A program made the translations under genes and the position numbers. From an uncultured Fibrobacteraceae bacterium (GTDB lineage Bacteria; Krumholzibacteriota; Krumholzibacteriia; LZORAL124-64-63), in the NCBI GenBank assembly GCA_964399195.1, contig CAYNPY010000008.1, forward strand, positions 2,260-66,259: a stretch of 64,000 bases of DNA. The letters are read 5' to 3'. Below the pieces are notes generated by a model. The model was not told the DNA's origin, did no database searches, and saw only the letters and a program-made list of their open reading frames with translations. Each line of letters starts with the position of its first letter. The first letter of the stretch is position 1. This document shows, in pieces, positions 12,901-45,811 of the stretch.

Positions 12901-13520
12901 TGCGGCCCGCGCTGCAGGCCGACCTGGCGGCCATGTACTTCCGCATCCGCGGCGGGCTGGGCTTCGCCAAGGACGTCGCCGAATACGGCGCCTTCCCGGC
13001 CGACCCCTATTCGCACACGCCGCTGGACGGAGGCGCCCGCCAGCCGGGCATGACCGGACAGGTCAAGGAGGAGATCCTCACCCGTCTGGGCGAGCTCGGC
13101 GTGCGCGTGGCGGCCGGCCGCGTCGCCTTCCGGCCCCTGCTGCTGCGTGACGACGAGTTCCTGGACCGCGGCGCCGTCCTGCGCGGCTACACGCCGGCCG
13201 GTGAAGACCTCTCGCTGCCGCTGGAGCCGGGCACGCTGGCCTTCACGCACTGCCAGGTGCCGGTGATCTACCGCCGCGTGGACGGGCCGGCGCGCGTGCG
13301 CGTGACCGATTGCGACAACAACGTGACCGAGGCGGGCGGCGACACGCTGGACGCGCGCGACAGCGCCGACCTTCTGGCCCGCGGCGGCCGCCTGCGCCGC
13401 ATCGACGTCGACGTTCCGGCCGCGATGCTGCTGGCCGCCACCACGCGGCCGCGCGGGGCGCGCGCGGCCTCGCCGCCGCCGCCGCCATCCCAGCCGACGC
13501 GATCCGGGCGGCGCCGCTGA
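9936..13520 (+). CDS. Large conserved cytoplasmic protein, possibly an (alpha/alpha)6 glycoside hydrolase/phosphorylase-like enzyme
   Basis: ATG 9936 follows AGGAGA, 14 nt after the previous stop. No signal peptide. RPEWNDANNAL resembles the xDWND catalytic-acid motif I associate with GH94-type phosphorylases. GYWGDHQIIYLLKLLE and YGYEGLGCIYWHM suggest helical-barrel repeats. The functional call is weak. Confidence 0.8.
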   Translation: MKGRLAPNPATTPIGAPRQGAPVGDFLVDDGEECHRIAGYHRLAPFLMTLASDTDLWMFITSGGGLTAGRVDADGALFPYRTVDKLHDAHHHAGPITLIRVERPGTETVLWEPFGRDGDDDPAVERFLLKNVVGSRLTFVETDHDLGLTFRYSWAACDEFGWVRTAAVEETGGRPARLEILDGLRDVLPHGAPLGLYQTASTLVDAYKRSEVDAATGMGLFSLSSGITDRAEALESLRANTVWCCGPQGFRVHLSAAAVKAFRQGRQPAEEAELCGARGNYLVSFGRDLPAAGRCAWRLAADAGRDHVQVAALRERLRRTPDDASPAGLAAVVDEALRSARESLRRNVASADGIQLTARREAWTHHFANVLFNNMRGGVFWRNHDVPVDDLARFLRQRQPAVAERHQGWLASLPAAPTIGEIYEAASRTGDADLKRLCFEYLPLHFGRRHGDPSRPWNRFAIKARGQNGDRELNYEGNWRDIFQNWEALAASFPAFLPGLVAKFVNASTVDGFNPYRLTRDGVDWEVASPDDPWANIGYWGDHQIIYLLKLLEALDRHQPGALESLLEAAVFSYAEVPYRLRPYERIVADPRDTIVFDAERHERIAARAQAMGADGKLVQAPAGGVRHATLAEKLLVPTLSKLSNLVPGGGIWMNTQRPEWNDANNALVGGGVSVVTLCYLRRHLAFLAGLFARAEGTSPAVAVEVADWLDAVLAALAETAPEAAAVAGDPRARRRLLDRLGAAFTAYREKVYDHGFGGSRPVPAARMVQLCEAALRHVDAGIAANRREDGLYHAYNLLDLGGDLAQLGRLPEMLEGQVAVLSAGVLDAAGSLAVLERLFDSPLYRPDQHSFLLYPARRLPGFLARNVVPEAPALAVPLLADLLAAGETAVLARDADGVLRFHGSFGNARDLSAALDALAAQARWRDAVARDRDAVLDLFEAVFRHRAFTGRSGAMYGYEGLGCIYWHMVAKLLLATQEVILRAERDGVRPALQADLAAMYFRIRGGLGFAKDVAEYGAFPADPYSHTPLDGGARQPGMTGQVKEEILTRLGELGVRVAAGRVAFRPLLLRDDEFLDRGAVLRGYTPAGEDLSLPLEPGTLAFTHCQVPVIYRRVDGPARVRVTDCDNNVTEAGGDTLDARDSADLLARGGRLRRIDVDVPAAMLLAATTRPRGARAASPPPPPSQPTRSGRRR

Positions 13521-15148
13521 TGCGCCCGCCGCTGCGCACACCCGGCGCGGCGTCGACGCTGCTGCTGGCGACCGTGATCCTGGCGACTCTGGCCACCGCC
13601 CTGCCCACGGCCGCGCAGTGCATCCTCGCCAACCCCAGCTTCGAATTGCTGGGCTCCGGCGGCGCCACGTTCGGCGGCTGGAACCAGTTCGGGCGCGTCG
13701 GCTCGACCACCATCGCCGACCACGGCGGCCGCGCGGCCCGCCTGCTGGGACCCAACCTGGGCGGCTGGGACGTGTCGGGCGTCTGGCAGGCGCGCACCTG
13801 CGCGCCGGGGCAGTCGTGGGCCATCACCGGGCACGTGCGGCACCCCTCCTGGAAGCCGCTCAGCGGCGACTGCGCGGCCATCGTCAACGTCGAGTGGCGC
13901 GACGCCGGCGACAACCTCATCAGCTACGAGTCCTTCGCGGTCGCCGGCCCCGCCTCCCCGACGGACCAGTGGCTCGCCTTCGCGCTGACCAGCCCCGGCG
14001 CGCCGGCCGGCGCGGCCACCGCCCGCCTGGTGCTGGGCCTGCTGCAGGCGCCCGGCGCGCCGGAGCCGGAGGCCTGGTTCGACCAGGTCACCTTCGACAG
14101 CGCCACGCCGCCCACGCTCGACCAACTGCAGTGGAACGACTTCCCCGGCGGCACCACCCTGCAGTTCAGCGGTCGCACCTGGCGCGTGAAGGGCCCCGGC
14201 TGGTACGGCCCGGGCGACAACTACTTCAGCAACCTCAGCGACCGCGTCTGGGTCGACGCCGGCGGCAATCTGCACCTGACGGTCAAGCGCTACGGCAGCA
14301 CCTGGAACTGCACCGAGGTGGTGACCCAGGAGGCGCTCGGGTACGGCGATTACATCGTGACGACCGTCGGGCGCCTGGATCTGCTGGACCCGCAGGTCGT
14401 GCTGGGCCTGTTCCTCTGGGAGTACGGCCCCTGCTGGAGCGACGGCTACCTGTGGTGGAACCCGTACAACGAGGTCGACATCGAATACAGCCGCTGGGGC
14501 AACCCGGCGCAGGACATCGGGCAGTTCGTGGCGCAGCCGTACGACTACCCGGGCAACCTCTCGCGCTTCGCCGCCGTGTTCGGCGTCGGCGAACAGGTCA
14601 GCCACGCCATGCGCTGGTCGCGCAACAAGGTCGAGTACCGCGTCTGGCGCGGCGGCCCCGCCGACGAGTCGCCCGGCACGCTGATCGCCACCTGGACCTA
14701 CAGCGGCCCGCACGTGCCGCGCCCCGAGTCGCCGCGCCTGCACCTGAACCTGTGGAAGCTGGGCGGCACGCCGGCCGCGAACCAGGAAGTGGTCATCAGC
14801 GGCTTCCGCTTCTATCCCCTGGGCGCGGTTGCCGCCGCCGAGGACCCCGCGCGTCCGCTGCCCGCCGCCCCGCCCGCCCGCCTGCTGGGCGTGGCGCCCA
14901 ACCCGTTCAACCCGCGCGTCACGGTGCGCTTCAGCACTGCGCACCCGCTGGAGGCGCGGCTCGAGATCTACGATCTGGCCGGGAGGCTGGTGCGCGCGCT
15001 GGCAGCCGGCGCCTTCGCCGCCGGCGAGCACGCCGCCGTGTGGGACGGGCGCGACGACGCCGGGCGCGACGCTCCGTCGGGCGTATACCTGGTGCAGCTG
15101 CGCGGGAACGGGTTCGCGGAGACTGTGGAAGCGACGCTGGTCAGATAG
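13520..15148 (+). CDS. Secreted CBM-like + GH16-like (ConA-like glucanase) protein with FlgD/T9SS-like C-terminal domain
   Basis: ATG 13520 overlaps the upstream stop (TGATG). Signal peptide ends ...ALPTAAQ. N-terminal ANPSFELLG...WFDQVTF resembles a CenC-type CBM. EVDIEY fits GH16 ExDxE. The CTD starts LLGVAPNPFNPRVTVRF and ends VEATLVR. Confidence 0.8.
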   Translation: MRPPLRTPGAASTLLLATVILATLATALPTAAQCILANPSFELLGSGGATFGGWNQFGRVGSTTIADHGGRAARLLGPNLGGWDVSGVWQARTCAPGQSWAITGHVRHPSWKPLSGDCAAIVNVEWRDAGDNLISYESFAVAGPASPTDQWLAFALTSPGAPAGAATARLVLGLLQAPGAPEPEAWFDQVTFDSATPPTLDQLQWNDFPGGTTLQFSGRTWRVKGPGWYGPGDNYFSNLSDRVWVDAGGNLHLTVKRYGSTWNCTEVVTQEALGYGDYIVTTVGRLDLLDPQVVLGLFLWEYGPCWSDGYLWWNPYNEVDIEYSRWGNPAQDIGQFVAQPYDYPGNLSRFAAVFGVGEQVSHAMRWSRNKVEYRVWRGGPADESPGTLIATWTYSGPHVPRPESPRLHLNLWKLGGTPAANQEVVISGFRFYPLGAVAAAEDPARPLPAAPPARLLGVAPNPFNPRVTVRFSTAHPLEARLEIYDLAGRLVRALAAGAFAAGEHAAVWDGRDDAGRDAPSGVYLVQLRGNGFAETVEATLVR

Positions 15149-15278
15149 ATCGCCTCCCGCGTGCCTCCGCTGCGCGCTTCCGCTATTGCCCCGCCGCCTT
15201 CTCCTCCGTAGTCTCAACAATCCCACCACGCATCGCGCCGACAGCCCTGATGACGAGCGCTGCCGCAAGACCGGGGGC

Positions 15279-18200
15279 ATGGTCATGAAGCGGACCTCGA
15301 TCTCGTTCCTCTGCCTGCAGATCCTTCTGGCCGCCGCCGGCGGCACGTGCCGCGCCGGCGCCTCGGGCGAGCCGCCCGCGCCATGGCGTGAGCCGGCGGA
15401 GCTGATCGCGTCGGGACGATTCGCGGCCGCCGACACGCTGGTGCAGCGGATCCTCGCGCAGGCGATCGAGGCGAACGACATCGACAACTGGACGCGCGCG
15501 CTGATCGAGCGGCGCACCCTGGGCACCGTGCTGGGGGCGCCAGAGACGGCGATCCGCCGGCTGCGCGCGACGCCATGGCCGGACGACGACCTGTCGCGGG
15601 CCGTGCTGGAACTGCACTACGCACAGAGCCTGGTCGAGTACCTGCGCCTTCACGCTTACGAGCTGCGGTCGCGCCAGCGCGTCGTGGCAAGCGATTCGCT
15701 GGTGCTCGAGACCTGGGATCACGCCCGCCTCGTGCGCGAGATCGACCGGGCGCTGCTGCGGGTCTGGCAGCGCCGCGAGGCGTTGGGCCGCCTCGCCCCG
15801 GAGGCCTGGCACGGATACATCGAGGCCAACACCTACCCCGACGGGATCCGTAGCACGTTGCGGGACGTCGTCACCTACCGCTGGGCCAGGCAACTTTCCG
15901 ACACCTCGCTCTGGTCGCCGGAGGCGTCCGAGGAGGCGCGCCGACTGGACCTGGAGGAATTGCTGGCTCTGGCGCGTGCCGACACCGCCGGCATCGCCGC
16001 GGCCATGGCCGACACCACGACGCATCCGCTGCGGCGACTCGGCCTGCTGCTGGCCGACCTGCGCGCCTGGCACACGGCCGGCGGCCGCGCCGGCGGCGCG
16101 CTGGAAGCGGAGTTGGCGTATCTGCGCAGCCTGCGGACGGCGGTGGACCGGCCCGCCATCCGGCGCCGGATGCGGGAGCATCTGGAGGGCATCCTGGCGA
16201 ACGTCGACCCGACCGAACCGTGGTGGTCGCAGGGCCAGGCGCAGCTCGCGGAATTCCTGGTCCGCGAAGAGCGACCCGACGGCCACCTCCTGGCCCGCGC
16301 CGCCTGCGCCCGTGGCGCCGCGCGCCATCCCGAGAGCATCGGCGGTCGCTTCTGCGCCTCGCTGCTCGAGCAGATCGAGCACCCCGAATGGCGTCTCGAG
16401 GCCATGGGCGCCGACGCCCCCGGGCGGCGCACCATTGCGATCATCCACCGCAACCTGCCGCGCCTGTACTTCCGGGCCTGGCGCCACGATCCCGGTGAGG
16501 ACTGGCCGCAGTCGACGCCGTGGCTCAATCCGAAGGACCTCGACAGGCACATCGACAGGCACGCGCCGGACCTGGCCTGGGAAGTGGCGCTGCCGCCGAC
16601 GCCCGACTACCGCGACCATCGGTCCTGGACCGGGCTGCCACCCTGTGCGCCCGGAACGTACGCGGTGGTCGCCTCGACGGGCCCCGGCTTCAAGGGCGGC
16701 AGCGACCGGATGATCGTCCAGGAGATTCTGGTGAGCAATCTGGTCGTGACGGCGCTGCCGTTGGAAGGCGGGCTGGACGTTCTCGTGCGTGACGCCGACA
16801 GCGGCCTGCCCGTCGAAGGGGCGACCGTCATGGCGGCCGGCAGCGGCGCGGCGGCGGCCGACGGCCAGCGCCTCACCGCCCTCACGGGGGCGGATGGGAG
16901 CGCGCGGCTCGGCGGAGAGATCGAGGGCGGCCTGCAGCTGCGCGTGTCCCACGAGGGACACCTGGCCCGCCTGTACCACGTCTGGCGGCCAGGCGCGTTG
17001 ACGGCGACGCCGAGCCTGCGGTCATTCGTCTACACCGACCGCGCCGCCTATCGGCCCGGCCAGACCGTGCACTGGAAGGTCGTGACCTACGCCACCGCGG
17101 AGCGGCTCATGGGCATGCACGCTGCGTCCGGCGAGCCGGTCACGGTCCGGCTGCGCGACGCCAACGGGGAAGTGGTCGCCGTGGCGAGGGACACGACCAA
17201 CGACTTCGGCTCGGCCTCGGGCTCGTTCGCGCTGCCGAAGGACAGGCTGCTCGGGCAGTGGTTCATCGCCGCCGAACCTCAGGGCGGCGCCCACATCCGG
17301 GTCGAGGAATACAAGCGCCCGACCTTCGACGTCACGCTGCCGGATCCGGCAGCCGCGCCGCAGCCGGGACGGCCCGCGCGACTGGAGGGCCTCGCCCGCT
17401 ACCTGCACGGACAGCCGGTGTCCGGCGGGCGCGTGCAATGGAGCCTGCGCCGCAATACGCAGGTGTGGCGGGGCTGGGACGGGCACGCGGCCGGCGGAGG
17501 CGCCGTGTTCGCGTCCGGCTCCGGTATCACCGGCGAAGACGGCTCCTTTGCCGCGGAGTTTGTGCCCGGGGAGATGCCCGCAGCCGACGACGGCCAGGCG
17601 CGCCTCGACAGCTACCACCTCCATGTCGACGTGACCGATCCCGGCGGCGAGACCCGCGGTGCCGATCTGCACTTCCGGATCGGCGCGGTCGAGCGCCTGG
17701 CTGCTTTCGAACCGCACGGCGCCCTGCTGGCCGCCGGGTGCGCCGACACGTTCACGGTCGCCTTGACCGATCTCAACCGCGTGCCGCGCGCAGGTGACGG
17801 ACGTTGGCGGCTCATGTCCCTGGTGGCGCCGGGCGCCGCGCGCCTGCCGGGGGATCTGCCCGGAAGCGGGTTGCTGCGGCCGGACGCCTTCTGCGTCACC
17901 GAGGGCGACACGCTGGCGCCGCGCTGGGATGCGGCGCCGCCCTGGCTAACCGCGGTGGGGACCTGGGCCGAGGGCGACACACTCGCCGCCGGCGCGGCGG
18001 TGCATGGCGACGATGGCCTGGCACGGATCGTCCTTCGTCCGGTGGTCAGCGGCGCCTGCCGACTGATCTACGATACGGCGGACGAGCAGGGCCGCCCCGT
18101 GAGCGCGAGCCGCCAGGTGTACGTCGCCGCGAGCGCGGGAGCCGCCGGAGAGCCGTCCGCCCTGCCGCTGCTGCTGGAATCCTCTGCCGAACAGGCGGCA

Positions 18201-21200
18201 GTGGGCGATACCGTGCGCTTCGTCGTCGCGTCGGGCCTGGCCGGGGCGCCGGTCCACGCGCGACTGCTGGTCGGTGAACGCCTGTGGCGCAGCTGGTTCG
18301 TCGACCCCGACAGCGCTGTGATCGAGATCCCGGTCACCGCGCCGATGCACGAGGGACTTACCCTGCAGGCCTGCGTGGTACGCGACCACCAGCTCGTCAG
18401 CGAGATGCGCCACGTGCGCGTGCCCTGGACCGAGAAGCGCTTGTCGGTGGCCCTCACCTCGTTTCGCGATCACCTGAGACCGGGCGAGGAGTCTTCGTTC
18501 CGGGTCGAGGTTCACGGCGCGGACCCCCGAACAGCGGCCGCCGAGGTGCTGGCGCTGATGTACGACCGCAGCCTCGACGCCGTGGCACCGCTGCTGTTGC
18601 CGGACCCGCTGACCGGCCTGGCCTTCAGCCGGCACGCGCGGACTCCGTACGCCACTGCCGGCGAACGCGCCCGCGGCTGGCATCGCCGCCCGCTGCGGCG
18701 TCCGCCCCGCTCGGAAGGCCTGCCCGACCTGGGGCCGGACTTCCTGCGGTGGTTCCCCGGCACGCGGCTGGACCACCAGCTGAACGAACGCGGCCAACTG
18801 CGGCTGACCGGCGTCGATCCGGCCCTGGCCCGGGACCTGGCGGCCCAGGGCATCCCGGTAGCCCAGCCGTTCGTCGTCCGCGGCGAGGAATACATGGTCG
18901 AGATCAAGTCGGCCGTGACCGAGCACACGGTTCGCGGCGAGACGTTCGAGAAGTACGCCATCGATTCCGTGGAGGATGCCCTGTCGAAACAGGCCGGCGT
19001 CGTCTACCGAGCCGGCGAGCTCTACGTGCGGGGCGGACGCAGCGGCGAGGACCTGATGAGCATCACCTCGTCGCTGGCCTGGGACGAAGTGTCGGCGCGG
19101 ACCGACTTCGCGGAGACGGGCTTCTTCCTGCCGCACGTCGAACTGGACGAGGCGGGCGGGGCGGTAATCGAGTTCCGCGCGCCCGAGTCGGCGACCGAAT
19201 GGAAGGTCCTGGTGGCCGCGCTCACGCGCGACCTGCGCGCGGGGCAGGCCGAACGCCGGCTGCGCACCGTCAAGGACCTGCTGGCGCGCCCGATCCTGCC
19301 GCGCTTCCTGCGCGAGGGCGACACCGCCGACCTGCGCGTTCTGGTCAGCAACGCCGGCGACGCCGTGCTTGCCGGCGAAGTGCGCCTCGAGATCGAGGAT
19401 CCGGCCGACGGCCGCGACCTCGGCCCCGCTTTCGGCCTGGAGCGGCCCGTGCGCCGCTTCCGCGTCGAGCCCGGCGGCACTGCCACCGTGACCTACGCCG
19501 TGAGGGCACCGACGGGCGCCGGTCCCGCCACCGTGCGCGCGCTGGCCCGCGCCGGCGACCGCGGCGACGGCGAGCAGCATCTGCTGCCCATCCTGCCGGA
19601 GCGCAAGCACCTGCTGCAATCGCGCTTCGTCGCCCTGGCCGACAGTTCGCGACGCGAGCTGCACTTCGCGTCCATGGCCGAGCCCGATCCCACGCGCCAC
19701 GACGAGCAGCTGACCGTGACGATCGACCAGCGCCTGTTGCCCGCGCTGCTGCGGGCGCTGCCCTACCTGGTGGAGTACCCGTATGAGAGCACCGACCTGA
19801 TCGTCGATCGCTTCCTGTGCAGCGGCATCATGTCGCGGCTGTTCGCCGGCCGGCCGCAGTTGGCTTCGCTTGCGGCCGGACTGGCCGATCGCGACACGCC
19901 GCTGCCGGCGTGGGACGCGAGCGATCCCAACCGCTGGCTCCGCTTCGAGGAGACGCCGTGGCTGCACCAGGCCGCGGGCCGGCCCACGGAATTGGCCGTC
20001 GTGCACCTGTTGGCCCCGGATGTGGCGAGCCGCCAGCGATACCTGTCGCTGTTCCGTCTGCGCGAACTGCAGCGCGGCGACGGCGGGTTCCCCTGGCACC
20101 CCGGCGGACCGTCATCGACGCACGTGACCCTGCAGGTCCTGCTGGCGCTGGCGCGGGCCGCCGAGTTCGGTCTCGGGGCGCCGGACGACGTGGTGGCGAA
20201 CGCGTGGCGGTATCTGGGCGATCAGTGCGGAGGCGATGGCCATCGTGACCCGTGGGGAAGGCTGGGACCGGACCTGTCGACGCTGCTCGGGCATCTTCTG
20301 TCGATCTGGCCGGAGACGGCCTGGCGTGGGTCAGGACTCACCGCCGGCGATCGCGACGCGCTCATCGAACAGGCCTGGAGCCGCCGCTTCGCCCTGCCGC
20401 GCCTGCTCAAGGCGTATCTGGCACTGACGCTCCACCGCGCGGGCCGCCCCGACGATGCCCGCGCATTGTACGAAGCGGTGCTGGACGGCGCTCGTATCGA
20501 CCCCGACCTGGGCGTCTATTGGCAGCCCGAGGACCGTTCGTGGCTCTGGCACAACGACCGCGTGGGATCGCACGCCGTCTTCCTGCGCGCGGCCACCGAG
20601 ATCCGCCCCGACGACCCGCGACGCCGCGGCCTGGCGCAGTGGCTGCTGCTGAATCGCCAACTGAGCCACTGGGGCTCGACGCGCGCGACCGCCGAGGCGA
20701 TCTACGCCCTGGCGCGCTACCTCGACGCCGAAGGTACCCTCGACGCGCGCGGCATCGTGCGCGTCGAGCTGGGAGCCCAGGAGCGACGCTTCGTCGCCGA
20801 TCCCGACGAGCCCCTTTCCGGGTCCGACGTGATCGTGCTGGAGGGCGACCGGATCGATCCGGCGACGATGCACACCATCGTCGTGCAACGCGAATCGCCG
20901 GGCCTGGCTTTTGCCACGGCCACGTGGACCTTCAGCACCGAGAGGATGCCGACGACCGGCGACGGCGATCTACTTGCCGTTTCCCGTGAGCTGTTCCGTC
21001 GCGAGTTGAAGGACGGACGCCCGCTGCTGACGCCGCTGCGCGACGGCGAGAGGGTGAAGATCGGCGACGAGATCGAAGTGCGGCTCACGGTCACCGCCCG
21101 GCAGTCCGCGGAGTACGTGCACATCCGCGACCCGCGCGCGGCCGGCTGCGAACCGGTCGACATGCGCTCAGGTCCGCGCTGGAACGAAGGGATCTACCAT

Positions 21201-21392
21201 CACCAGGAGGTCCGCGACGCGGCGACCAGCTTCTTCGTCCCGTGGCTGCCGGCCGGGCGCATCACGCTGGCCTACCGCGTGCGCGCGGCCGTGAGCGGCG
21301 TATTCGCCGCCCAACCGGCGGTGGTCCAGTCGGTGTACGCGCCGGAGTTCGGCGCCCATTCGGCGGGGAACGTCGTGAGGATCAGGGACTGA
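15279..21392 (+). CDS. Alpha-2-macroglobulin family protein (large extracellular helical + MG domains), thioester motif absent
   Basis: Nested start MVMKRTSISFLCLQILLAAAGG. MG-domain signature RVEEYKRPTFDV. The thioester-domain context reads LVEYPYESTDL where A2Ms have ...PYGCxEQ. Confidence 0.85.
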   Translation: MVMKRTSISFLCLQILLAAAGGTCRAGASGEPPAPWREPAELIASGRFAAADTLVQRILAQAIEANDIDNWTRALIERRTLGTVLGAPETAIRRLRATPWPDDDLSRAVLELHYAQSLVEYLRLHAYELRSRQRVVASDSLVLETWDHARLVREIDRALLRVWQRREALGRLAPEAWHGYIEANTYPDGIRSTLRDVVTYRWARQLSDTSLWSPEASEEARRLDLEELLALARADTAGIAAAMADTTTHPLRRLGLLLADLRAWHTAGGRAGGALEAELAYLRSLRTAVDRPAIRRRMREHLEGILANVDPTEPWWSQGQAQLAEFLVREERPDGHLLARAACARGAARHPESIGGRFCASLLEQIEHPEWRLEAMGADAPGRRTIAIIHRNLPRLYFRAWRHDPGEDWPQSTPWLNPKDLDRHIDRHAPDLAWEVALPPTPDYRDHRSWTGLPPCAPGTYAVVASTGPGFKGGSDRMIVQEILVSNLVVTALPLEGGLDVLVRDADSGLPVEGATVMAAGSGAAAADGQRLTALTGADGSARLGGEIEGGLQLRVSHEGHLARLYHVWRPGALTATPSLRSFVYTDRAAYRPGQTVHWKVVTYATAERLMGMHAASGEPVTVRLRDANGEVVAVARDTTNDFGSASGSFALPKDRLLGQWFIAAEPQGGAHIRVEEYKRPTFDVTLPDPAAAPQPGRPARLEGLARYLHGQPVSGGRVQWSLRRNTQVWRGWDGHAAGGGAVFASGSGITGEDGSFAAEFVPGEMPAADDGQARLDSYHLHVDVTDPGGETRGADLHFRIGAVERLAAFEPHGALLAAGCADTFTVALTDLNRVPRAGDGRWRLMSLVAPGAARLPGDLPGSGLLRPDAFCVTEGDTLAPRWDAAPPWLTAVGTWAEGDTLAAGAAVHGDDGLARIVLRPVVSGACRLIYDTADEQGRPVSASRQVYVAASAGAAGEPSALPLLLESSAEQAAVGDTVRFVVASGLAGAPVHARLLVGERLWRSWFVDPDSAVIEIPVTAPMHEGLTLQACVVRDHQLVSEMRHVRVPWTEKRLSVALTSFRDHLRPGEESSFRVEVHGADPRTAAAEVLALMYDRSLDAVAPLLLPDPLTGLAFSRHARTPYATAGERARGWHRRPLRRPPRSEGLPDLGPDFLRWFPGTRLDHQLNERGQLRLTGVDPALARDLAAQGIPVAQPFVVRGEEYMVEIKSAVTEHTVRGETFEKYAIDSVEDALSKQAGVVYRAGELYVRGGRSGEDLMSITSSLAWDEVSARTDFAETGFFLPHVELDEAGGAVIEFRAPESATEWKVLVAALTRDLRAGQAERRLRTVKDLLARPILPRFLREGDTADLRVLVSNAGDAVLAGEVRLEIEDPADGRDLGPAFGLERPVRRFRVEPGGTATVTYAVRAPTGAGPATVRALARAGDRGDGEQHLLPILPERKHLLQSRFVALADSSRRELHFASMAEPDPTRHDEQLTVTIDQRLLPALLRALPYLVEYPYESTDLIVDRFLCSGIMSRLFAGRPQLASLAAGLADRDTPLPAWDASDPNRWLRFEETPWLHQAAGRPTELAVVHLLAPDVASRQRYLSLFRLRELQRGDGGFPWHPGGPSSTHVTLQVLLALARAAEFGLGAPDDVVANAWRYLGDQCGGDGHRDPWGRLGPDLSTLLGHLLSIWPETAWRGSGLTAGDRDALIEQAWSRRFALPRLLKAYLALTLHRAGRPDDARALYEAVLDGARIDPDLGVYWQPEDRSWLWHNDRVGSHAVFLRAATEIRPDDPRRRGLAQWLLLNRQLSHWGSTRATAEAIYALARYLDAEGTLDARGIVRVELGAQERRFVADPDEPLSGSDVIVLEGDRIDPATMHTIVVQRESPGLAFATATWTFSTERMPTTGDGDLLAVSRELFRRELKDGRPLLTPLRDGERVKIGDEIEVRLTVTARQSAEYVHIRDPRAAGCEPVDMRSGPRWNEGIYHHQEVRDAATSFFVPWLPAGRITLAYRVRAAVSGVFAAQPAVVQSVYAPEFGAHSAGNVVRIRD

Positions 21393-21470: not shown

Positions 21471-22121
21471 CTAGCGGAACAGCGCCTTCACGCCGCCGAA
21501 GCTCTCGGTCTCGGTCGACACCGGGGTGTACGGCCCGATGACGATGTTGCCGTACGGCGCCACGTCGGTGATCCACACGCAGACGCCGATCATCTCGAAG
21601 CCCCACTGCACGTGGCGGGCGGGGTCGTTGAGCAGGGCCAGCGACAGCGTGAAGTCGCCGCTGCTCGGCAGGTCGATCATCGTCTGGTTGAACGACGAGA
21701 AGTCCGGCGCGAAGTCGCGGATGAAGGCCTTGGCGACGTGCGCCGTGGTCAGCGTGTTCGACAGCACGGTGCCGGTGAAGGTCAGGGTCTGGCCGGCGAA
21801 CGAGCCGTCATCGACCTGCGCGTACGAGTCCGCGAACATGATCTTCTGGCCCACGCTGCCGGGGCCGCCGCTGGGCAGGTACCAGTACGGATCGGGGTCG
21901 CCGATCGAGTTCGGGCTCAGGACCAGGTTCGGGCCCGAGAACGCGGCGACCAGGTCCGCGAAGCCCCAGCCGCTGCCCCACAGGTAGTTGTAGCCGAGGT
22001 CGTAGACGTTCATGTAGCCGTTGCTGATCTGGGGGCTGACGGTGACGTCAGCGGCGAGGGCGGAGCCGGCGCACAGGGCGCACACCAGCAGGATGACGAG
22101 CGCTTTCGCATTGCGGCGCAT
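21471..22121 (-). CDS. Small secreted protein, C-terminal-tail family (ends ...TESFGGVKALFR)
   Basis: Nested ATG 22121. Signal peptide MRRNAKALVILLVCALCAGSALA. The passenger is homologous by eye to the N-domain of 8951..9922. Confidence 0.85.
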   Translation of the reverse strand: MRRNAKALVILLVCALCAGSALAADVTVSPQISNGYMNVYDLGYNYLWGSGWGFADLVAAFSGPNLVLSPNSIGDPDPYWYLPSGGPGSVGQKIMFADSYAQVDDGSFAGQTLTFTGTVLSNTLTTAHVAKAFIRDFAPDFSSFNQTMIDLPSSGDFTLSLALLNDPARHVQWGFEMIGVCVWITDVAPYGNIVIGPYTPVSTETESFGGVKALFR

Positions 22122-26485: not shown

Positions 26486-27322
26486 TCAAGGCAGGAAGGC
26501 GTCCGCCCAGTCGGCGGGCAGGCGTCCCGCGGGCGCCACCAGCGCCATCGCCAGGTCGCCGTCGATCCACACCCGCGCCTCGCGCTCCCAGCCTTGGCCG
26601 CTGAACACCCGCCATCCCTTCACCTGCGACGACGGGGCGCCCTCCAGATCGAGGTTCTGCGCCGGCACCGCGAACAGGACGAGGCGCTGGCCGTCGGCGA
26701 TCTCGTACGAGGCGAGCGCCGACAGGCGGCCGACCGTGTGCCAGACCCGGCCGCCCTGCAAGCGATAGCCGGCGCGTGGCGCCGGCAACTCGATGCGGAA
26801 GCTGAGCGACTCGCCGAGCCAATCGGACAGATCCCGCTGGTCCGTGATGAACACCTCGAGCGGACGCCCGATCCTCTCCAGCAGATAGTGGTCGTGGGTG
26901 ACGTCCTCGATGTACATGCCGACGTTGCGAGGCACCTCCGCGGACAGCCGCGTCGGCAGCAGGTCGGCGTAGCGGCCGAGAACCACGCCCAGCGTCAGTG
27001 AAGCCGCCAGCGCGAGCGGCAACGCTATCCGGCGCGGCGCAGACCAGCGGCGGGTTCCGGACCGCTCCTCGCCGGCTCCCGGGCGCGAAACGTCCCGCGG
27101 CGCACCCTCCAGCTCCGCCAGCATCCTGGCGCGCAGGGGCGCCGGCAGCGGAGCCGCCAGCAAAGGCAGTTCGCGCAATCGCGCCGCAAGGTCGGCCGCG
27201 CCACGACGCAAGGCGGCGCAATCCGGGCACTCGTCGGCATGGGCCCGCGTCGGTTCGTCCCACGTGATACCGTGCGGGTCCAGTTCGACCGCGCGGCAAT
27301 GCTGCCGTTCATCCAGGCTCAA
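26486..27322 (-). CDS. Anti-sigma factor (zf-HC2-like N-terminus, single TM, extracytoplasmic domain)
   Basis: TTG start overlaps the sigma-factor stop (TTGA). H..C...CPDC motif, TM segment IALPLALAASLTLGVVLG, and a C-terminal ~150-aa domain. Confidence 0.75.
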   Translation of the reverse strand: MSLDERQHCRAVELDPHGITWDEPTRAHADECPDCAALRRGAADLAARLRELPLLAAPLPAPLRARMLAELEGAPRDVSRPGAGEERSGTRRWSAPRRIALPLALAASLTLGVVLGRYADLLPTRLSAEVPRNVGMYIEDVTHDHYLLERIGRPLEVFITDQRDLSDWLGESLSFRIELPAPRAGYRLQGGRVWHTVGRLSALASYEIADGQRLVLFAVPAQNLDLEGAPSSQVKGWRVFSGQGWEREARVWIDGDLAMALVAPAGRLPADWADAFLP

Positions 27323-28023
27323 TCCGCGCTTCCCCCGGCAGCCGCGTCGCGCCTGCGGCGCGCGGCGCGCAGCCGCTCATACAGATTCCGTCGCGCCCGG
27401 TGCAGGCCCGAGCGAAGCGTCCCGGGCGCGATGTCCAGACCCGCCGCCGCCTCGTCGTAGCTCCAGCCCTCGACGTCAACCAGCAGCACTGAGGCCCGCC
27501 AGCGCGGCGGCAGCGCGCGCAGCGCCGCCTCCACCTCGTCGTCGAAGGCCTCGCGGATGACGGCCGGCTCCCAATCCGGCGCGGCCTCCGACAGTTCCGC
27601 CTCGGCGGCCAGGTCGTCGTCCCAGCCGGATTCGCCTCGACGCGCCCGCGCGCGCCAAAGGTCGCGACAGGTGTTGTGCACGATGCGCGCCAGCCAGCTG
27701 CGCCCATTGCTGCCCGGTCGCAAGCCGCCAAAGCCGCGGACGGCCTTCAGGAACGCCTCCTGCGCAACGTCGTCGGCCAGGTCCGCGTCACCGCACACGG
27801 CGCGGGCCATGCGGTACAGAACGTCCAGATGCGGCTCGATCTCCGCGGCGAAGCGACGGCGCTCGGCGGGCGACAGGCGAAGCGTCAACGCGTCGGGTCC
27901 TCGCGTCAGGTGTCCGGGACTCCCCCCGCCCCGATGATAACGCCTGACCAGCGTCAACCCAACCCCGATCGATGCGGCGCGGCCGGGACCCGGAGGCGTC
28001 CGAGAGGATCGTGCACCTGCCAA
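27319..28023 (-). CDS. ECF (group 4) sigma-70 family RNA polymerase sigma factor
   Basis: Region 2: LYRMARAVCGDADLADDVAQEAFLKAV. Region 4: WSYDEAAAGLDIAPGTLRSGLHRARRNL. The start is uncertain: the track start is a TTG at 28023, and another TTG is at 27957. Confidence 0.85.
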   Translation of the reverse strand: MAGARSSRTPPGPGRAASIGVGLTLVRRYHRGGGSPGHLTRGPDALTLRLSPAERRRFAAEIEPHLDVLYRMARAVCGDADLADDVAQEAFLKAVRGFGGLRPGSNGRSWLARIVHNTCRDLWRARARRGESGWDDDLAAEAELSEAAPDWEPAVIREAFDDEVEAALRALPPRWRASVLLVDVEGWSYDEAAAGLDIAPGTLRSGLHRARRNLYERLRAARRRRDAAAGGSAD

Positions 28024-28066
28024 GGCAGGGGATCCCGGCCGTTGCCGACCCGCTGGGCGGCATCCG

Positions 28067-28681
28067 CTAGCGGTACTCCGCCTTCAGCTCCGACCAGCTC
28101 CGCTGCTCCGTCGAAACGACGTCTTCCTGCGGCTCGACCTTGCCATCCCAGCGTTCCGAGTAGCCCGGCAGCACCTGCGTCGCGGCGCGCGAGACGGCCG
28201 TCAGCAGCGGCCAGCCGGTGCGGTCGGCGGGCGCCAGCAGATCCAGCAGCGACCCGCCCGACCAGTCGACGCTCCCGGCGCCGCTGCCGAGGCTGCTGGT
28301 GACCATCGTGCGCTGGAAGACGCCGAGGGTTCCGGCCAGCACGAGCGTGCCGTCGGCGAAAGTCGTTGGGCTCGCCCAATCGGCGGGCGTGGCCGCGTCC
28401 TCGTAGATCGCGACGGCGCCCCCTGCGAACAGGCTCGTGGCGCCGAGGGAGTCGAGCGTCAGGCCCGTGATCACCAGGGTGTACTGGTGGTTCGCGAAAT
28501 CGAGCGGCAGCGGCGCCGCCACGGCGTCACCGTTGACGATCTTGCCGTACACCGTCGCCGTGCCGCCAACCCCTTCGGGCATGACGACCTGGGCGTCGAA
28601 ATCGAACATCTGCGTGGCGAGCGCGGCCGTCGAGAGTATGGCCTGCCCGAGCAGAATCAGCGTGATCATTGTCTTCATCAT
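28067..28681 (-). CDS. Small secreted protein, C-terminal-tail family (ends ...QRSWSELKAEYR), paralog of 28736..29422
   Basis: ATGATG start after GGAGGAAGGA. Signal peptide MMKTMITLILLGQAILSTAALA. It shares ...TFADGTLVLAGTLGVF... with ...TFNDGDLVFSGVFNGF... in its neighbour. Confidence 0.85.
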   Translation of the reverse strand: MMKTMITLILLGQAILSTAALATQMFDFDAQVVMPEGVGGTATVYGKIVNGDAVAAPLPLDFANHQYTLVITGLTLDSLGATSLFAGGAVAIYEDAATPADWASPTTFADGTLVLAGTLGVFQRTMVTSSLGSGAGSVDWSGGSLLDLLAPADRTGWPLLTAVSRAATQVLPGYSERWDGKVEPQEDVVSTEQRSWSELKAEYR

Positions 28682-28735
28682 CCTGGTCCTTCCTCCACGT
28701 GGAAGTGTGTTCTGCCGGCGGCGCGGTGCGCGGCC

Positions 28736-29422
28736 CTACCGGCCAGGGTTGTACAGCTGCTTGAGCGAACCCCAGTTGACGTTCTCGACGGCGACGGCGG
28801 ACTCCACCTCGAGCACCCCGTCGACCTGCAGGTCGTAGCCGTCGGGGATCTGCGCGCCTGTGGACGCATTGAAGGTGCCGGCGAACGTGTAGGCGCAGTT
28901 CGAGCAGGGTCCGGCCAGGGCGCTGCCGCCGGTGCCGTCCACGTAGCCCTCGAAGACGCCGATGCCCGACGGCAGCAGCGTCAGCGCGAAGCCGTTGAAC
29001 ACGCCGGAAAAGACGAGATCGCCGTCGTTGAACGTGGCGGGCACCGTCGCGTTGACCGGATCCACGCCCCAGTCGTGGTTGCGCAGGTTGCCTGCGTGCA
29101 GGGCCAGCACGCCGCCGGCGTACGTGACCGTCGTGGCGCCGGACACCGGGTCGAAGACCGCACCCAGGCTGGACAGGCCGTCGATGAAGAGCGTTGCTTC
29201 CTGCGCGCCGAGATCCACGTCGAAGAGCGGGTCGATCTGCGTGACGACCGCCGCCAGGGCCAGTTGGTCGCCGGGCTGGCTCGAGGCCAGACCGCCGGTC
29301 TCCCAGCCGAAGCCGACGAAGTCGACCTCGGCGGCACGCGCGGGCGCGACGGCAGCCAACAGGGCCAGGATCAGGGCGCCGAGGCCCGAAGCGACGGCGG
29401 GACGAATCGTTCGAAACGACAT
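28736..29422 (-). CDS. Small secreted protein, C-terminal-tail family (ends ...NVNWGSLKQLYNPGR)
   Basis: Nested ATG 29422 after GAGGGGG. Signal peptide ...LALLAAVAPARA. Confidence 0.85.
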   Translation of the reverse strand: MSFRTIRPAVASGLGALILALLAAVAPARAAEVDFVGFGWETGGLASSQPGDQLALAAVVTQIDPLFDVDLGAQEATLFIDGLSSLGAVFDPVSGATTVTYAGGVLALHAGNLRNHDWGVDPVNATVPATFNDGDLVFSGVFNGFALTLLPSGIGVFEGYVDGTGGSALAGPCSNCAYTFAGTFNASTGAQIPDGYDLQVDGVLEVESAVAVENVNWGSLKQLYNPGR

Positions 29423-43897: not shown

Positions 43898-45637
43898 TCA
43901 GCGCACGAGCGAGACGCGAACCGTCGAGGCGCCCTGCGGCAGCGAGAGGCGGCACAGGTAGGCGCCGCTGGGCGCGGCGCGCCCGGCTTCATCCAGCCCG
44001 TCCCAGACGAACGCCTGCCGGCCCGCCGCCAGCGCGCCCGCGTGCAGCACGCGCACGCGCCGGCCCGCCAGATCGTGGACGGCCAGCTCGCCGGCGGCCG
44101 CGGCCGCCAGCGTGAAGCTCACCGTCACCCGCGGATTGAACGGGTTCGGCGCCGCCGCCAGCGCCGGCAGCGAAGCGGGAGCGACGTCGCCGGCCCCGGC
44201 GACGTAGGCCGGCTGCAGGCCGGCCACGTCCGCCAGCAGTCCGGCGCCGGCGCGCGCGACCTGCACCGACATCGCCGCCGTCGCGGCGATGGCCGCCCAG
44301 GTGTCCGCCGTGCTGTGGTAGGGCGTGTAGTCGTCCCAGTCGTAGTCGATGGCCAGGAACGCCGGGTAGCCCGCCTGCTGGAACGGCACGTGGTCGCTGC
44401 CGAAGCTGTAGTAGTCCTTCTGCCAGCCCAGGTCGGTCAGCGCGTCGACGTTGGCGGCCATCGCCGACATCAGGGTTTCCCACGCGGGCTGGCCCTCGAT
44501 GCGGATCGCGTAGTTGGCGGCGTAGAAGGCCACCATGTCGTGGATGAGCGCGCCGACGATCACCCGCCCGCCGGCCACCGCGTCGTCCACGAAGTACTCG
44601 CTGCCGATCAGCCCGCGCTCCTCGGCGTCGAAGAGCACGAACTGGAGCGAGCGGTCGAAGGTGCGCCCGGCGGCCAGGCGCGCCAGCTCCATCACCAGGG
44701 CCGTGCCGGAGGCGTTGTCGTCGGCGCCCGGCGCCAGCGAGGTCGGCGTCTGCGACGTGGAATCGTAGTGCCCGCCGACGACGAAGTATTCGCCGGGCGT
44801 CACGGCGCCCGGCAGCGTCGCGACGACGTTCCGGCAGGCGACGCGGTTGTAGGTGAACGACTGGAACGCCACGTCGTAGCCCCACGCGGCCAGCTGCGCC
44901 GCCAGGGCGTCGGCGACGAACGTCTTGTCGGCCGTGCTGTAGTAGCGCGTGGCGACGGTGCGCGTCTGGCCGGCGTGCGTCAGCGGCAGCGAGCCGCTCA
45001 GCCGGCGGATCGTCGTGAAGATGGAATCCGCGGCGACGCCGGCGGCGAACGCCGTCTTGAGGGCCAGATCCTTCGCGGCGTGGGGCGCGGGCTTCGTCGC
45101 CGCCGCCGCGACGCGCTCGCGCAGACCGTCCCAGCCGGCCGGCGGCGCGTCCAGGCGCAACCGCTGGCGGCCGGCTCCCAGCGCGGCGAAGGCCTCGGCC
45201 TTGGCCGGCGGCACCTCGACGACCCAGGCCCCGTCCAGCGCCAGGTGCACGCGGCCGACCGCGGCCAGGTCCGCCGTCGCGACCGGGCGGCCGTGCGCGC
45301 GGCCCTTCGCGCGCACCAGGAACCACTCCCCGTCCGGCCAGGCCGGCGCCAGCGGCTCGCCGAAGCGGTGCTGATCGGCGGGCGCGACGCGGTCGGCCAC
45401 CAGCACGCCGCCGGGCAGCTCCCAGACCAGCGTGCCGAGGTCCCCCGCCGCGGCGCGCGCGGCAGCGGCCTGCGGTCCGGTGACGAAGGCCAGACCGGAC
45501 GCGCGGGCGGCCGGCGCCGAGGCCAGCAGAGCCAGGACCGGCAGCGCCAGCACCAGCAGGATCGGCAGCGGGCGGCTGAGCGGAACGCGGAGAGCGGGCC
45601 GGGCGCGGCGGCCGGCGGGCGAAGGCAGGGGCGACAT
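43898..45637 (-). CDS. M28 family metallopeptidase with FlgD/T9SS-like C-terminal domain
   Basis: GADDNASGTALVMELAR and FDAEERGLIGSEYF. The CTD starts LAAAPNPFNPRVTVSF and ends VRVSLVR. The start is uncertain (ATG 45637 or an upstream in-frame ATG). Confidence 0.85.
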   Translation of the reverse strand: MSPLPSPAGRRARPALRVPLSRPLPILLVLALPVLALLASAPAARASGLAFVTGPQAAAARAAAGDLGTLVWELPGGVLVADRVAPADQHRFGEPLAPAWPDGEWFLVRAKGRAHGRPVATADLAAVGRVHLALDGAWVVEVPPAKAEAFAALGAGRQRLRLDAPPAGWDGLRERVAAAATKPAPHAAKDLALKTAFAAGVAADSIFTTIRRLSGSLPLTHAGQTRTVATRYYSTADKTFVADALAAQLAAWGYDVAFQSFTYNRVACRNVVATLPGAVTPGEYFVVGGHYDSTSQTPTSLAPGADDNASGTALVMELARLAAGRTFDRSLQFVLFDAEERGLIGSEYFVDDAVAGGRVIVGALIHDMVAFYAANYAIRIEGQPAWETLMSAMAANVDALTDLGWQKDYYSFGSDHVPFQQAGYPAFLAIDYDWDDYTPYHSTADTWAAIAATAAMSVQVARAGAGLLADVAGLQPAYVAGAGDVAPASLPALAAAPNPFNPRVTVSFTLAAAAAGELAVHDLAGRRVRVLHAGALAAGRQAFVWDGLDEAGRAAPSGAYLCRLSLPQGASTVRVSLVR

Positions 45638-45811
45638 GCCGGCACTCCCATGCGGGCCGGCGCCGGCTGGCGCCATCCCGGGTTGAAGACCATCGTTGCG
45701 GGGCATCCGGATGATCATAGCACGCCGCCCGCGGGCGGCGCCAGCGCGCCGGGGATCTCCCCCGCGCGCCTGCCGCGCCCGGCGGCGGACCACGTGACCT
45801 GGGAGCGCCGC

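Follow-up and report, generated by a model that had tools for sequence, protein, structure and literature searches.

A shared C-terminal tail on unrelated exported proteins of Eisenbacteria and related phyla as a candidate sorting or anchoring tag

Five exported proteins and their common ending

Why should five small exported proteins, encoded at separate sites in one stretch of bacterial DNA and carrying largely unrelated bodies, all end in the same ten-residue tail? The stretch, referred to here as the window, is the whole 64,000-nucleotide segment that was analysed, from an uncultured Fibrobacteraceae bacterium. A preliminary description made from the sequence alone proposed that the tail is an undescribed sorting or anchoring signal shaped as a single amphipathic beta-strand. 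We find that the tail itself is real and occurs on all five proteins where it was first seen. The reading placed on it is only partly supported, because its behaviour as a modular C-terminal signal is borne out but the proposed strand structure is not.

All five open reading frames were confirmed (Table 1), and their shared ending can be summarised as [ST]-[WF]-[GS]-x-[LIV]-K-x-x-[YF]-R before the stop codon, although one of the five carries additional residues after the core. A six-frame regular-expression scan of the window finds the core [WF][GS]x[LIVM]Kxx[FY] exactly five times, each within 0-4 residues of a stop, whereas the reversed motif is found 0 times. The number expected from amino-acid frequencies is 0.012 anywhere in the window and 0.0006 next to a stop. 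In 200 local shuffles the mean was 0.025, and none of these matches was located at a C-terminus. Each of the five proteins has a basic N-terminus followed by a hydrophobic segment that looks like a Sec signal peptide, as judged by eye and by a heuristic.

Other statements of the preliminary description were also examined. The products of 28067-28681 and 28736-29422 are paralogs as claimed (BLASTP E=4e-15), and four other proteins of the window do carry FlgD_ig C-terminal domains (CTDs) of the type used by T9SS. However, the claimed resemblance of 21471-22121 to the N-domain of 8951-9922 is not supported by BLASTP (E=0.02 over 30 residues). The proposed consensus requires refinement, in that the conserved unit spans about 16 residues, [VT]-P-[VTA]-[ER]-x-x-[ST]-W-G-x-[IVL]-K-x-[LM]-[YF]-R, and the requirement for an Arg at the very end is not supported. 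This residue is preferred but not obligatory, being absent or followed by 1-8 residues in about 40% of one superfamily. The product of 4203-7415, which had been put forward as a possible partner, remains no more than a suggestion, and no partner was identified at all.

Table 1. Features of the window that bear on the C-terminal tail.
Coordinates	Strand	Feature	Tail	Tail core	Remarks
28067-28681	-	204-aa exported protein: signal peptide, beta-rich passenger, flexible linker, tail	SWSELKAEYR	28073-28096	R at 28070-28072, stop at 28067-28069
28736-29422	-	228-aa paralog of 28067-28681	NWGSLKQLYNPGR	28751-28774	Core followed by 4 extra residues
3144-3887	-	247-aa exported protein, unrelated passenger	TWGSLKAEFR	3150-3173	Singleton in the BLAST clustering; no Pfam or NCBIfam family
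21471-22121	-	216-aa exported protein, unrelated passenger	SFGGVKALFR	21477-21500	
56806-57387	+	193-aa exported protein, unrelated passenger	TFGALKSLYR	57358-57381	
27319-27888	-	ECF sigma factor			Immediately downstream of the two tail paralogs; Pfam Sigma70_r2 and r4_2
26486-27322	-	278-aa anti-sigma-like protein with H-x3-C-x2-C motif, one transmembrane segment and periplasmic domain			Fourth gene of the conserved cassette; no Pfam hit
8951-9922	+	Exported protein with T9SS-type FlgD_ig CTD			Comparator
13310-15148	+	Protein with FlgD_ig CTD			Comparator
43898-46363	-	Protein with FlgD_ig CTD			Comparator
57686-58684	-	Protein with FlgD_ig CTD			Comparator
47086-48252		Double-PDZ protein			

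Distribution and passengers of the tail

There are more than 200 loci matching the tail in two DNA-pattern scans of GTDB species genomes, and this is a lower bound. Nearly all come from the Fibrobacteres-Chlorobi-Bacteroidetes (FCB) group, namely Eisenbacteria, Krumholzibacteria, Gemmatimonadota, Latescibacterota, Zixibacteria, KSB1, Ignavibacteria and Hymenobacteraceae, and tandem arrays of up to 7 genes in 8 kb are present. All 122 matches returned by the first scan sit directly on a true stop codon, even though the pattern also allowed TGG at this position. Among 46 independent motif copies in the flanks, 30 end exactly at the C-terminus and 5 more lie within 2-6 residues of it, whereas the corresponding figures for a reversed-motif control are 0 of 9 and 1 of 9. 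An obvious signal peptide is present from an ATG start in 81 of 95 complete ORFs, and in several more from GTG or TTG starts, whereas only 4 of 108 have a lipobox-like site. Thus, the tail is confined to the extreme C-terminus of proteins that have N-terminal signal peptides. In addition, a 40-aa profile searched against a database of 5.8 billion proteins collected only 19 candidates and provided no census.

There are 65 BLAST clusters among 113 passengers, and the associated Pfam domains are unrelated. They include LTD, beta-helix/pectate lyase, NHL, a TolB-like propeller, plastocyanin, and choice-of-anchor C and Y. Profile-profile comparison with hhalign of two window families, those of 28067-28681 and 56806-57387, aligns only the 18-residue tail. 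Each of these families retains its ending, with 89 homologs of about 204 aa keeping the tail of the former and eleven homologs of the latter all keeping SFGxLKxLYR. A Foldseek search of PDB with the 28067-28681 passenger gave no significant match.

The tail is also exchanged with another C-terminal module. At one locus, designated L014, the adjacent paralogs L014:5761-6414 and L014:6363-7454 are 67% identical, yet the first carries the tail and the second carries a FlgD_ig CTD, and they diverge right after a shared P-[IV]-E-x-x-S linker. Moreover, 2 of 149 remote relatives of the 28067-28681 family carry a CTD instead of the tail. The possibility that the tail is a truncated first strand of the CTD was rejected because hhalign of the tail against the CTD profile gives a probability of only 0.2%.

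These observations bear on the possibility that the tail reflects ordinary conservation, wherein the passengers would be one very divergent family, or small outer-membrane beta-barrels whose last structural element or BAM beta-signal is the tail. Many carriers are indeed of similar size, with a median of about 220 aa, they are beta-rich, and an aromatic residue lies near the C-terminus. However, the range of passenger domains, sizes from about 130 to over 800 aa, the restriction of the profile alignment to the tail and the occurrence of the same passenger with a CTD all argue against this explanation. In addition, the tail is predicted to be a detached helix rather than a barrel strand, and its last residue is Arg rather than Phe or Trp. 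We consider this explanation to be largely refuted.

The picture differs in Ignavibacteria, Hymenobacteraceae and similar lineages, where all but three of the sampled motif hits with a real ORF fall in one conserved family of about 140 aa. There the tail looks more like a docking peptide of one protein than a general sorting signal.

No database that was searched contains a description of the tail. Pfam and NCBIfam models gave no named family with the full-length proteins or with isolated tails, for which no NCBIfam sorting-signal model hits any of 94 sequences even at E<=10, and a profile search of all PDB sequences at E<=10 gave 0 hits. RefSeq names for carriers are 'hypothetical protein'. 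Full-text literature searches of papers other than subscription-only ones, including searches for motif strings, found nothing relevant.

Conservation, predicted structure and gene neighbourhood

The conservation of individual residues was measured in a set chosen by passenger homology and not by the tail. In this set W is present in 90%, the Lys position is K in 96% versus R in 4%, and S/T precedes W in 92%, which argues for recognition by a protein or enzyme rather than by bulk lipid. All synonymous codons are used in both GC-rich and AT-rich genomes, so selection acts on the protein, and the possibility of a conserved DNA element translated by accident was rejected. However, tolerance of the loss of the final R and of 1-8 extra residues is unusual for tags that are read through a free carboxylate.

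AlphaFold2 predicts a short alpha-helix that is not docked on the passenger in two families, and not the beta-strand for strand complementation that had been proposed initially. For 28067-28681, the model consists of a beta domain at residues 24-182 with pLDDT >90, a low-confidence linker and a helix at 196-202, whereas for 56806-57387 a helix is predicted at 182-192 with low pLDDT. Confidence in the tail is modest to low, with pLDDT values of only 66 and 33. The conserved S/T just before W fits a helix N-cap. A helical-wheel reading of the sequence logo places W, I/V/L, L/M and Y/F on one arc with K and R beside it, and the mean hydrophobic moment is 0.46-0.53 at 100-110 degrees. However, the moment is equally high at 170-180 degrees, and therefore amphipathicity alone does not discriminate between helix and strand.

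Perhaps the tail is instead an autonomous in-plane anchor, wherein the short amphipathic helix with its aromatic and basic residues would bind the membrane interface or LPS/phospholipid head groups directly. Periplasmic or surface proteins would then be tethered peripherally without any dedicated partner, in the manner of the MinD/FtsA membrane-targeting sequences or the PBP5 C-terminal helix. The predicted free helix, its amphipathic pattern, the absence of an identified partner gene and the tolerance of extra or missing terminal residues are compatible with this possibility, which is the main rival explanation. However, identity-level conservation of W, G, K and S/T across phyla and unrelated passengers is far stricter than lipid-binding helices normally show. 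Also, we estimate from interfacial hydrophobicity scales that a helix of 9 residues by itself gives only weak membrane affinity. This alternative appears less likely than a dedicated tag, though it is the strongest of those considered.

The neighbourhoods of about 230 loci were clustered to look for partner genes, and no recurrent dedicated processing enzyme was found near the tail genes. The only large recurrent cluster is the set of FlgD_ig CTD proteins, and the other recurrent neighbours are histidine kinases, Ser/Thr kinases, ABC ATPases or housekeeping genes. Two loci have a neighbouring C25 peptidase. For the family of about 140 aa, the recurrent neighbours are maf and SpoIID-like genes.

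The two tail paralogs at 28067-29422 lie in a conserved cassette with genes for an ECF sigma factor and an anti-sigma-like protein, and the same gene order occurs in a 57%-identical relative. This is context for that family only and is not part of the general tag. Nevertheless, the arrangement, the extreme C-terminal position, the penultimate aromatic residue and the presence of a double-PDZ protein in the window raise the possibility that the tail is a recognition peptide for a periplasmic PDZ-domain or C-terminal-processing protease. By analogy with the OMP YxF C-termini that activate DegS, it would act as a degron or an envelope-stress signal that links the fate of these proteins to ECF sigma signalling. 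We consider this quite unlikely, because only this one family was seen next to sigma/anti-sigma genes and no sigma gene appears among the recurrent neighbour clusters of the other loci. Furthermore, PDZ recognition of a free C-terminus would not tolerate the added terminal residues, the 16-residue conserved unit is longer than a PDZ ligand, and the swap with a secretion CTD points to targeting rather than turnover.

An even weaker candidate function is covalent attachment to peptidoglycan or LPS through the conserved Lys, in analogy to the Lpp C-terminal YRK link made by L,D-transpeptidases. The strong preference for Lys over Arg and the resemblance of the Y/F-R ending to that of Lpp are consistent with this idea, and the conserved single-copy family in Ignavibacteria often sits beside a SpoIID-like peptidoglycan-remodelling gene. 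However, the Lys is internal rather than terminal, no transpeptidase was found nearby, and the proposal rests on analogy only.

A possible sorting tag and its closest known systems

We favour the interpretation that the tail is an undescribed extreme-C-terminal sorting or anchoring tag for Sec-exported proteins of the FCB-group phyla, massively expanded in Eisenbacteria and their relatives, with a probability of roughly 0.5. What the sequences demonstrate is the anatomy: an N-terminal signal peptide, any of dozens of unrelated and mostly beta-rich passengers of about 150-450 aa, a Pro/Val/Thr/Glu-rich flexible linker, and the core [ST]-W-G-x-[IVL]-K-x-[LM]-[YF]-(R) within a few residues of the C-terminus. 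The mechanism, including any effect of the tail on localisation, is inferred from sequence and structure prediction alone. In this view, after Sec export and removal of the signal peptide, the tail would form a 2-2.5-turn helix N-capped by the S/T, with W, I/V/L, L/M and Y/F on one face flanked by K and R. A conserved envelope component would recognize this helix and retain the passenger at, or deliver it to, a defined envelope location, as an alternative to the T9SS-type CTD route used by paralogs in the same genome. Because there is no transmembrane segment, recognition would have to be periplasmic or at the outer membrane, which in this respect would resemble a T9SS CTD and differ from sortase or exosortase signals.

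A more far-reaching but doubtful possibility is that the tail is the cargo tag of an entirely undescribed envelope sorting or secretion pathway of the FCB superphylum, in which a conserved receptor or enzyme would read a helical C-terminal peptide of about 10 residues. The tail would have been present ancestrally on one Fn3-like protein of about 140 aa, found in Ignavibacteria, Hymenobacteraceae, Zixibacteria and KSB1, and Eisenbacteria, Krumholzibacteria and Latescibacterota would then have co-opted it for a large share of their secretome.

C-terminal sorting tags such as LPXTG, PEP-CTERM and T9SS CTDs have each led to the discovery of a dedicated envelope machine, and they are also used to annotate surface proteomes. 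The present tail is carried by five of roughly 50 genes in the window, and by many unrelated 'hypothetical' proteins in several poorly known phyla that are common in soil, sediment and wastewater. A model for it would relabel those proteins as one cargo class and give a handle for finding the machine that reads the tag. It would also allow a direct comparison with T9SS, because paralogs differ only in which C-terminal module they carry. Cultured carriers exist in Hymenobacter, Adhaeribacter, Rosettibacter and Melioribacter, which makes the tag experimentally testable.

The closest known systems include the T9SS C-terminal domains (type A, TIGR04183/Por_Secre_tail, PF18962; here the FlgD_ig-like CTD, PF13860). 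Like these domains, the tail lacks a transmembrane segment, is attached to many unrelated passengers among Sec-exported proteins of FCB-group bacteria, and occurs in the same genomes and neighbourhoods, and the two modules are directly interchangeable between close paralogs. However, the tail has 9-16 residues and is predicted to be helical, whereas the CTD is an Ig-like beta-sandwich of 70-100 residues. The five proteins and 61 representatives have no hit to the CTD models, although true CTD proteins in the same window do match PF13860, and nothing shows that the tail uses T9SS.

Short sorting signals read by dedicated sortases (LPXTG/sortase, PEP-CTERM/exosortase, GlyGly-CTERM/rhombosortase, MYXO-CTERM/myxosortase) are likewise short conserved C-terminal tags on signal-peptide proteins, with many unrelated passengers per genome and lineage-restricted expansions, and the present tail is also found on 'choice-of-anchor' passenger families. 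Those signals are tripartite, with a motif, a hydrophobic transmembrane helix and a basic cluster. All classical short sorting signals have a transmembrane helix, and its absence here counts against reading the tail as a sorting tag. In contrast, proteins with the present tail end within 0-8 residues of the motif and have no hydrophobic stretch, and no sortase-like enzyme was found to be associated in the neighbourhoods examined.

The amphipathic-helix membrane-targeting sequences of MinD, FtsA and PBP5/DacA are similar in that a short C-terminal helix with aromatic, aliphatic and basic residues follows a flexible linker, and the MinD tail (...KGFLKRLFGG) even resembles the present tail in pattern. 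However, MinD and FtsA are cytoplasmic, and those sequences are conserved in pattern and not in identity, whereas the present tail is located on exported proteins and its W, G, K and S/T are nearly fixed across phyla. Finally, the outer-membrane-protein beta-signal and the DegS-activating YxF C-termini share the extreme C-terminal position with an aromatic residue near the end. The beta-signal is the last strand of a membrane beta-barrel ending in Phe or Trp, whereas the terminal residue here is Arg in most cases, the tail is predicted to be helical, the passengers are soluble domains, and the consensus does not fit polar-x-G-x-x-hydrophobic-x-hydrophobic.

The tail motif and its distribution

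There are five ORFs with the C-terminal tail in the window, which is 73% G+C, and all of them exist as the preliminary description claimed. Each begins with a basic and then hydrophobic, signal-peptide-like N-terminus. A six-frame scan finds the core [WF][GS]x[LIVM]Kxx[FY] five times, always within 0-4 residues of a stop, whereas the reversed motif is absent. The expectation from composition is 0.012 matches anywhere and 0.0006 next to a stop, and in 200 shuffles none fell at a C-terminus. Thus, the original observation is confirmed and lies far beyond chance.

Coordinates of the tail-bearing ORFs and of other features mentioned in the text (a prefix beginning with L denotes a locus recovered in this analysis; all other coordinates refer to the window)
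Feature	Coordinates	Strand	Details
Tail protein	3144-3887	-	ends ...TWGSLKAEFR
Tail protein	21471-22121	-	ends ...SFGGVKALFR
Tail protein	28067-28681	-	ends ...SWSELKAEYR
Tail paralog of 28067-28681	28736-29422	-	ends ...NWGSLKQLYNPGR
Tail protein	56806-57387	+	ends ...TFGALKSLYR
ECF sigma factor	27319-27888	-	third gene of the four-gene cassette
Anti-sigma-like protein	26486-27322	-	zf-HC2-type; H-x3-C-x2-C motif, one transmembrane segment, no Pfam hit
Four-gene cassette	26486-29422	-	28736-29422, 28067-28681, 27319-27888, 26486-27322
Four-gene cassette, relative	L230 4290-7150		same gene order
T9SS-type FlgD_ig CTD protein	8951-9922
T9SS-type FlgD_ig CTD protein	13310-15148
T9SS-type FlgD_ig CTD protein	43898-46363
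T9SS-type FlgD_ig CTD protein	57686-58684
Alpha-2-macroglobulin	14829-21392	+	2187 aa; MG2, A2M_BRD, A2M and bMG10 domains
Peptidase_C25 protein with FlgD_ig CTD	L040 2384-6784	-	about 1470 aa
Peptidase_C25 protein with FlgD_ig CTD	L100 1833-6278	+	about 1470 aa
VIT-VWA protein and sortase (PF04203) gene pair	L231/L232 1133-3738

None of the five proteins hits a relevant Pfam or NCBIfam family. The rest of the window encodes ordinary enzymes and four proteins with a T9SS-type FlgD_ig C-terminal domain (CTD), and these CTDs do not contain the tail motif. The longest ORF of a bacterial alpha-2-macroglobulin overlaps the 3' end of the CTD protein ORF 13310-15148, and therefore one of the two starts is probably mis-set. 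The preliminary description also claimed that the 21471-22121 protein resembles the N-domain of the CTD protein 8951-9922, but this is not supported by BLASTP (E=0.02 over 30 residues).

To examine distribution, the tail was back-translated into a DNA pattern ending in TRR, which stands for the three stop codons plus TGG, and one genome per GTDB species was scanned. There are at least 118 loci. Nearly all were labelled Eisenbacteria/Eiseniibacteriota, Krumholzibacteriia, Gemmatimonadota, Latescibacterota or unclassified MAGs, and a few were Hymenobacter, Ignavibacteria and 'Fibrobacteraceae'. All 122 matches are followed by a genuine stop (TAG 70, TGA 36, TAA 16, TGG 0). Positions that the pattern did not fix are also conserved, such that the unit is [VT]-P-[VTA]-[ER]-x-x-[ST]-W-G-x-[IVL]-K-x-[LM]-[YF]-R. 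A second, codon-neutral pattern with a TAA stop added Ignavibacteria, Melioribacter, the cultured Rosettibacter primus, Kapaibacterium, Chlorobiota, Calditrichaceae, KSB1, Zixibacteria, Cloacimonadota and Adhaeribacter. The tag is therefore a feature of the FCB group.

There is also evidence for enrichment at C-termini that is independent of the seed matches. In the 826 kb of flanks from the first scan, 46 further motif copies did not match the seed pattern, of which 30 end exactly at the C-terminus and 5 more lie within 2-6 residues of it. Of 9 reversed-motif controls, none ends at a C-terminus and one lies within 2-6 residues. Among the 11 internal copies, 9 look like chance. The other two, in L005 (+ strand frame 0) and L035 (+ strand frame 1), carry the full motif (SWGQIKALF, SWGKIKGLF) in ORFs that run on for 81 or 184 residues; they look like read-through of former stops and are possibly lost stops, pseudogenes or sequencing errors. 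In the second set, 377 kb of high-GC flanks gave 8 more exact copies and 8 near-terminal copies, whereas 408 kb of low-GC flanks gave none. Tail genes often sit in tandem, with 7 in the 8 kb of L035, 4 in L140 and 4 in L120, which suggests rapid local duplication of this cargo class.

There are two regimes of usage. In Ignavibacteria, Melioribacter, Kapaibacteria, Calditrichaceae, KSB1, Zixibacteria and Hymenobacteraceae, all but three of the sampled motif hits with a real ORF fall in one conserved family of 135-160 aa, which has a signal peptide and an Fn3-like body and ends ...S-x-V-K-R-T-W-G-S-I-K-A-M-F-R. Representatives of about 140-150 aa ending ...VKRTWGSIKAMFR are found in loci L126, L131, L145, L175, L181 and others, and in L055, L088, L117 and L169, and the family is also present in Rosettibacter. 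RefSeq names it 'hypothetical protein'. It is followed on the same strand by maf in 31 of 61 loci and by a SpoIID-like gene in 17 of 61, and no second tail gene was found in the 408 kb of flanks from these genomes. In Eisenbacteria and allied high-GC phyla, the tail is instead spread over dozens of families.

Carrier proteins and exchange of the C-terminal module

Of 95 complete ORFs, 81 have an obvious signal peptide from an ATG start, and several others do from GTG or TTG starts. A handful of short ORFs are probably chance hits. Only 4 of 108 have a lipobox-like site.

After removal of the signal peptide and tail, 113 carriers fall into 65 BLAST clusters at E<1e-5. The 3144, 21471 and 56806 proteins of the window are singletons, and 28067 and 28736 share one cluster. 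Pfam and NCBIfam scans of 61 representatives find unrelated domains in different members, namely lamin-tail domain, right-handed beta-helix/pectate lyase, NHL, a TolB-like PD40 propeller, DUF642 (choice-of-anchor C), choice-of-anchor Y, ScyE-like and plastocyanin-like, and no family is shared by more than three members. In addition, 94 isolated 40-residue tails hit no NCBIfam model even at E<=10. Profile-profile comparison of the 28067 family (63 sequences) with the 56806 family (12 sequences) aligns only the last 18 residues. The preliminary description had named a single divergent passenger family as grounds for rejecting its idea, and this condition does not hold. An explanation by ordinary family conservation, or by a beta-signal, is among the less likely ones.

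The tail is a swappable module. In locus L014, two adjacent genes encode passengers that are 67% identical over 181 residues, and these share a P-[IV]-E-x-x-S linker and then diverge. One ends WGKVKSLFR-stop, whereas the other continues into a ~98-residue FlgD_ig CTD. The window's own CTD protein 13205-15145 is a more distant relative of that passenger. A full HMM search with the 28067-family profile over 1.84 billion representatives gave 279 relatives. Among the best 149 of these, 111 match a strict tail regex, most others are fragments or carry mild variants such as K to R, and two carry a CTD instead of the tail. Tail and CTD profiles show no similarity, so the tail is not a decayed CTD. 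The only named homolog of the 28067-28681 protein (P0005) is labelled 'MAG: Lysobacterales bacterium'. However, all genome-scan relatives of this family with a phylum label are Eisenbacteria or Gemmatimonadota MAGs, so that label is probably a binning or classification error. The window itself most likely comes from an Eisenbacteria-like organism.

Residue conservation and predicted structure

Codons for G, I/V/L, A/S, R and K vary freely in both GC-rich and AT-rich genomes, so the conserved object is the peptide and not a DNA element. In 184 distinct relatives chosen by passenger homology, and therefore not biased by our pattern, W is kept in 90%, K in 96% (with R in only 4%), Y/F in 89%, and S/T before W in 92%. 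The residue after Y/F is R in 61% and absent in 11%, and up to 8 extra residues occur. The core is therefore residue-specific, but an exact free Arg carboxylate is not essential.

AlphaFold2 on the 28067 family gives a mean pLDDT of 89.8 and predicts a beta-rich domain at 24-182 (pLDDT >90), a low-confidence linker, and a helix at 196-202 (W-S-E-L-K-A-E) with pLDDT about 66 that is not packed on the domain. The 56806 family has a shallower alignment and a mean pLDDT of 69, and again gives a terminal helix, at 182-192, but at pLDDT about 33. The S/T before W is a typical helix N-cap, and in our reading of the conserved positions on a helical wheel, W, I/V/L, L/M and Y/F share one arc with K and R beside it. 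Unfortunately, the hydrophobic moment is about equal for helical and strand periodicity and does not decide between the two, and the helix itself is only modestly supported. The beta-strand or strand-complementation idea of the preliminary description has no support from these models. No PDB sequence carries the motif, and the passenger fold has no significant PDB match.

Genomic context and interpretation

Clustering of all ORFs in the first 118 loci reveals one large recurrent neighbour class, present in 32 loci, which consists of CTD-bearing proteins linked to each other only by their CTD. Two loci, L040 and L100, have a Peptidase_C25 (gingipain/PorU-family) protein with a CTD directly beside tail genes of one ~200-aa family. 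Other recurrent neighbours are generic. No dedicated enzyme emerged from these loci, which is normal for dispersed cargo genes but leaves the mechanism inferred. Next to a distant 28067-family member in L231/L232 there is a VIT-VWA protein and sortase gene pair, the known Gram-negative dedicated-sortase arrangement, but this is probably unrelated to the tail. The two tail paralogs of the window form a cassette with the ECF sigma factor and the anti-sigma-like membrane protein, which is kept in a 57%-identical relative on a 3.84-Mb contig. A more distant relative does not keep it.

The data establish a modular tag at the extreme C-terminus of Sec-exported proteins, as judged from their signal peptides, that is conserved at the protein level, lineage-restricted and interchangeable with a T9SS-type CTD. 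It is absent from Pfam-A (2025), NCBIfam 20.0, PDB and the literature open to searching. What we infer beyond this, with a probability of roughly 0.5, is that the tag is read as a short helix by a conserved envelope component that places or retains the passenger. The identity-level conservation, especially of K over R and of W, G and S/T, argues for protein recognition. The main alternative, which remains tentative, is an interfacial membrane or LPS anchor that needs no partner. Perhaps the tail is instead a PDZ/protease signal or a site of Lys-mediated covalent attachment, but these possibilities are less likely.

This real and widespread tag appears to be undescribed, although C-terminal sorting/anchoring signals as such are already known and we place it among them. 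The interpretation in the preliminary description is partly supported, in that its core idea of a C-terminal sorting or anchoring signal is supported and its structural detail is not. There is a substantial chance that the tag marks a new pathway. It lacks the defining features of T9SS CTDs, of tripartite sortase-type signals and of OMP beta-signals, and therefore should not be filed under any of them, although in logic it works most like a miniature CTD.
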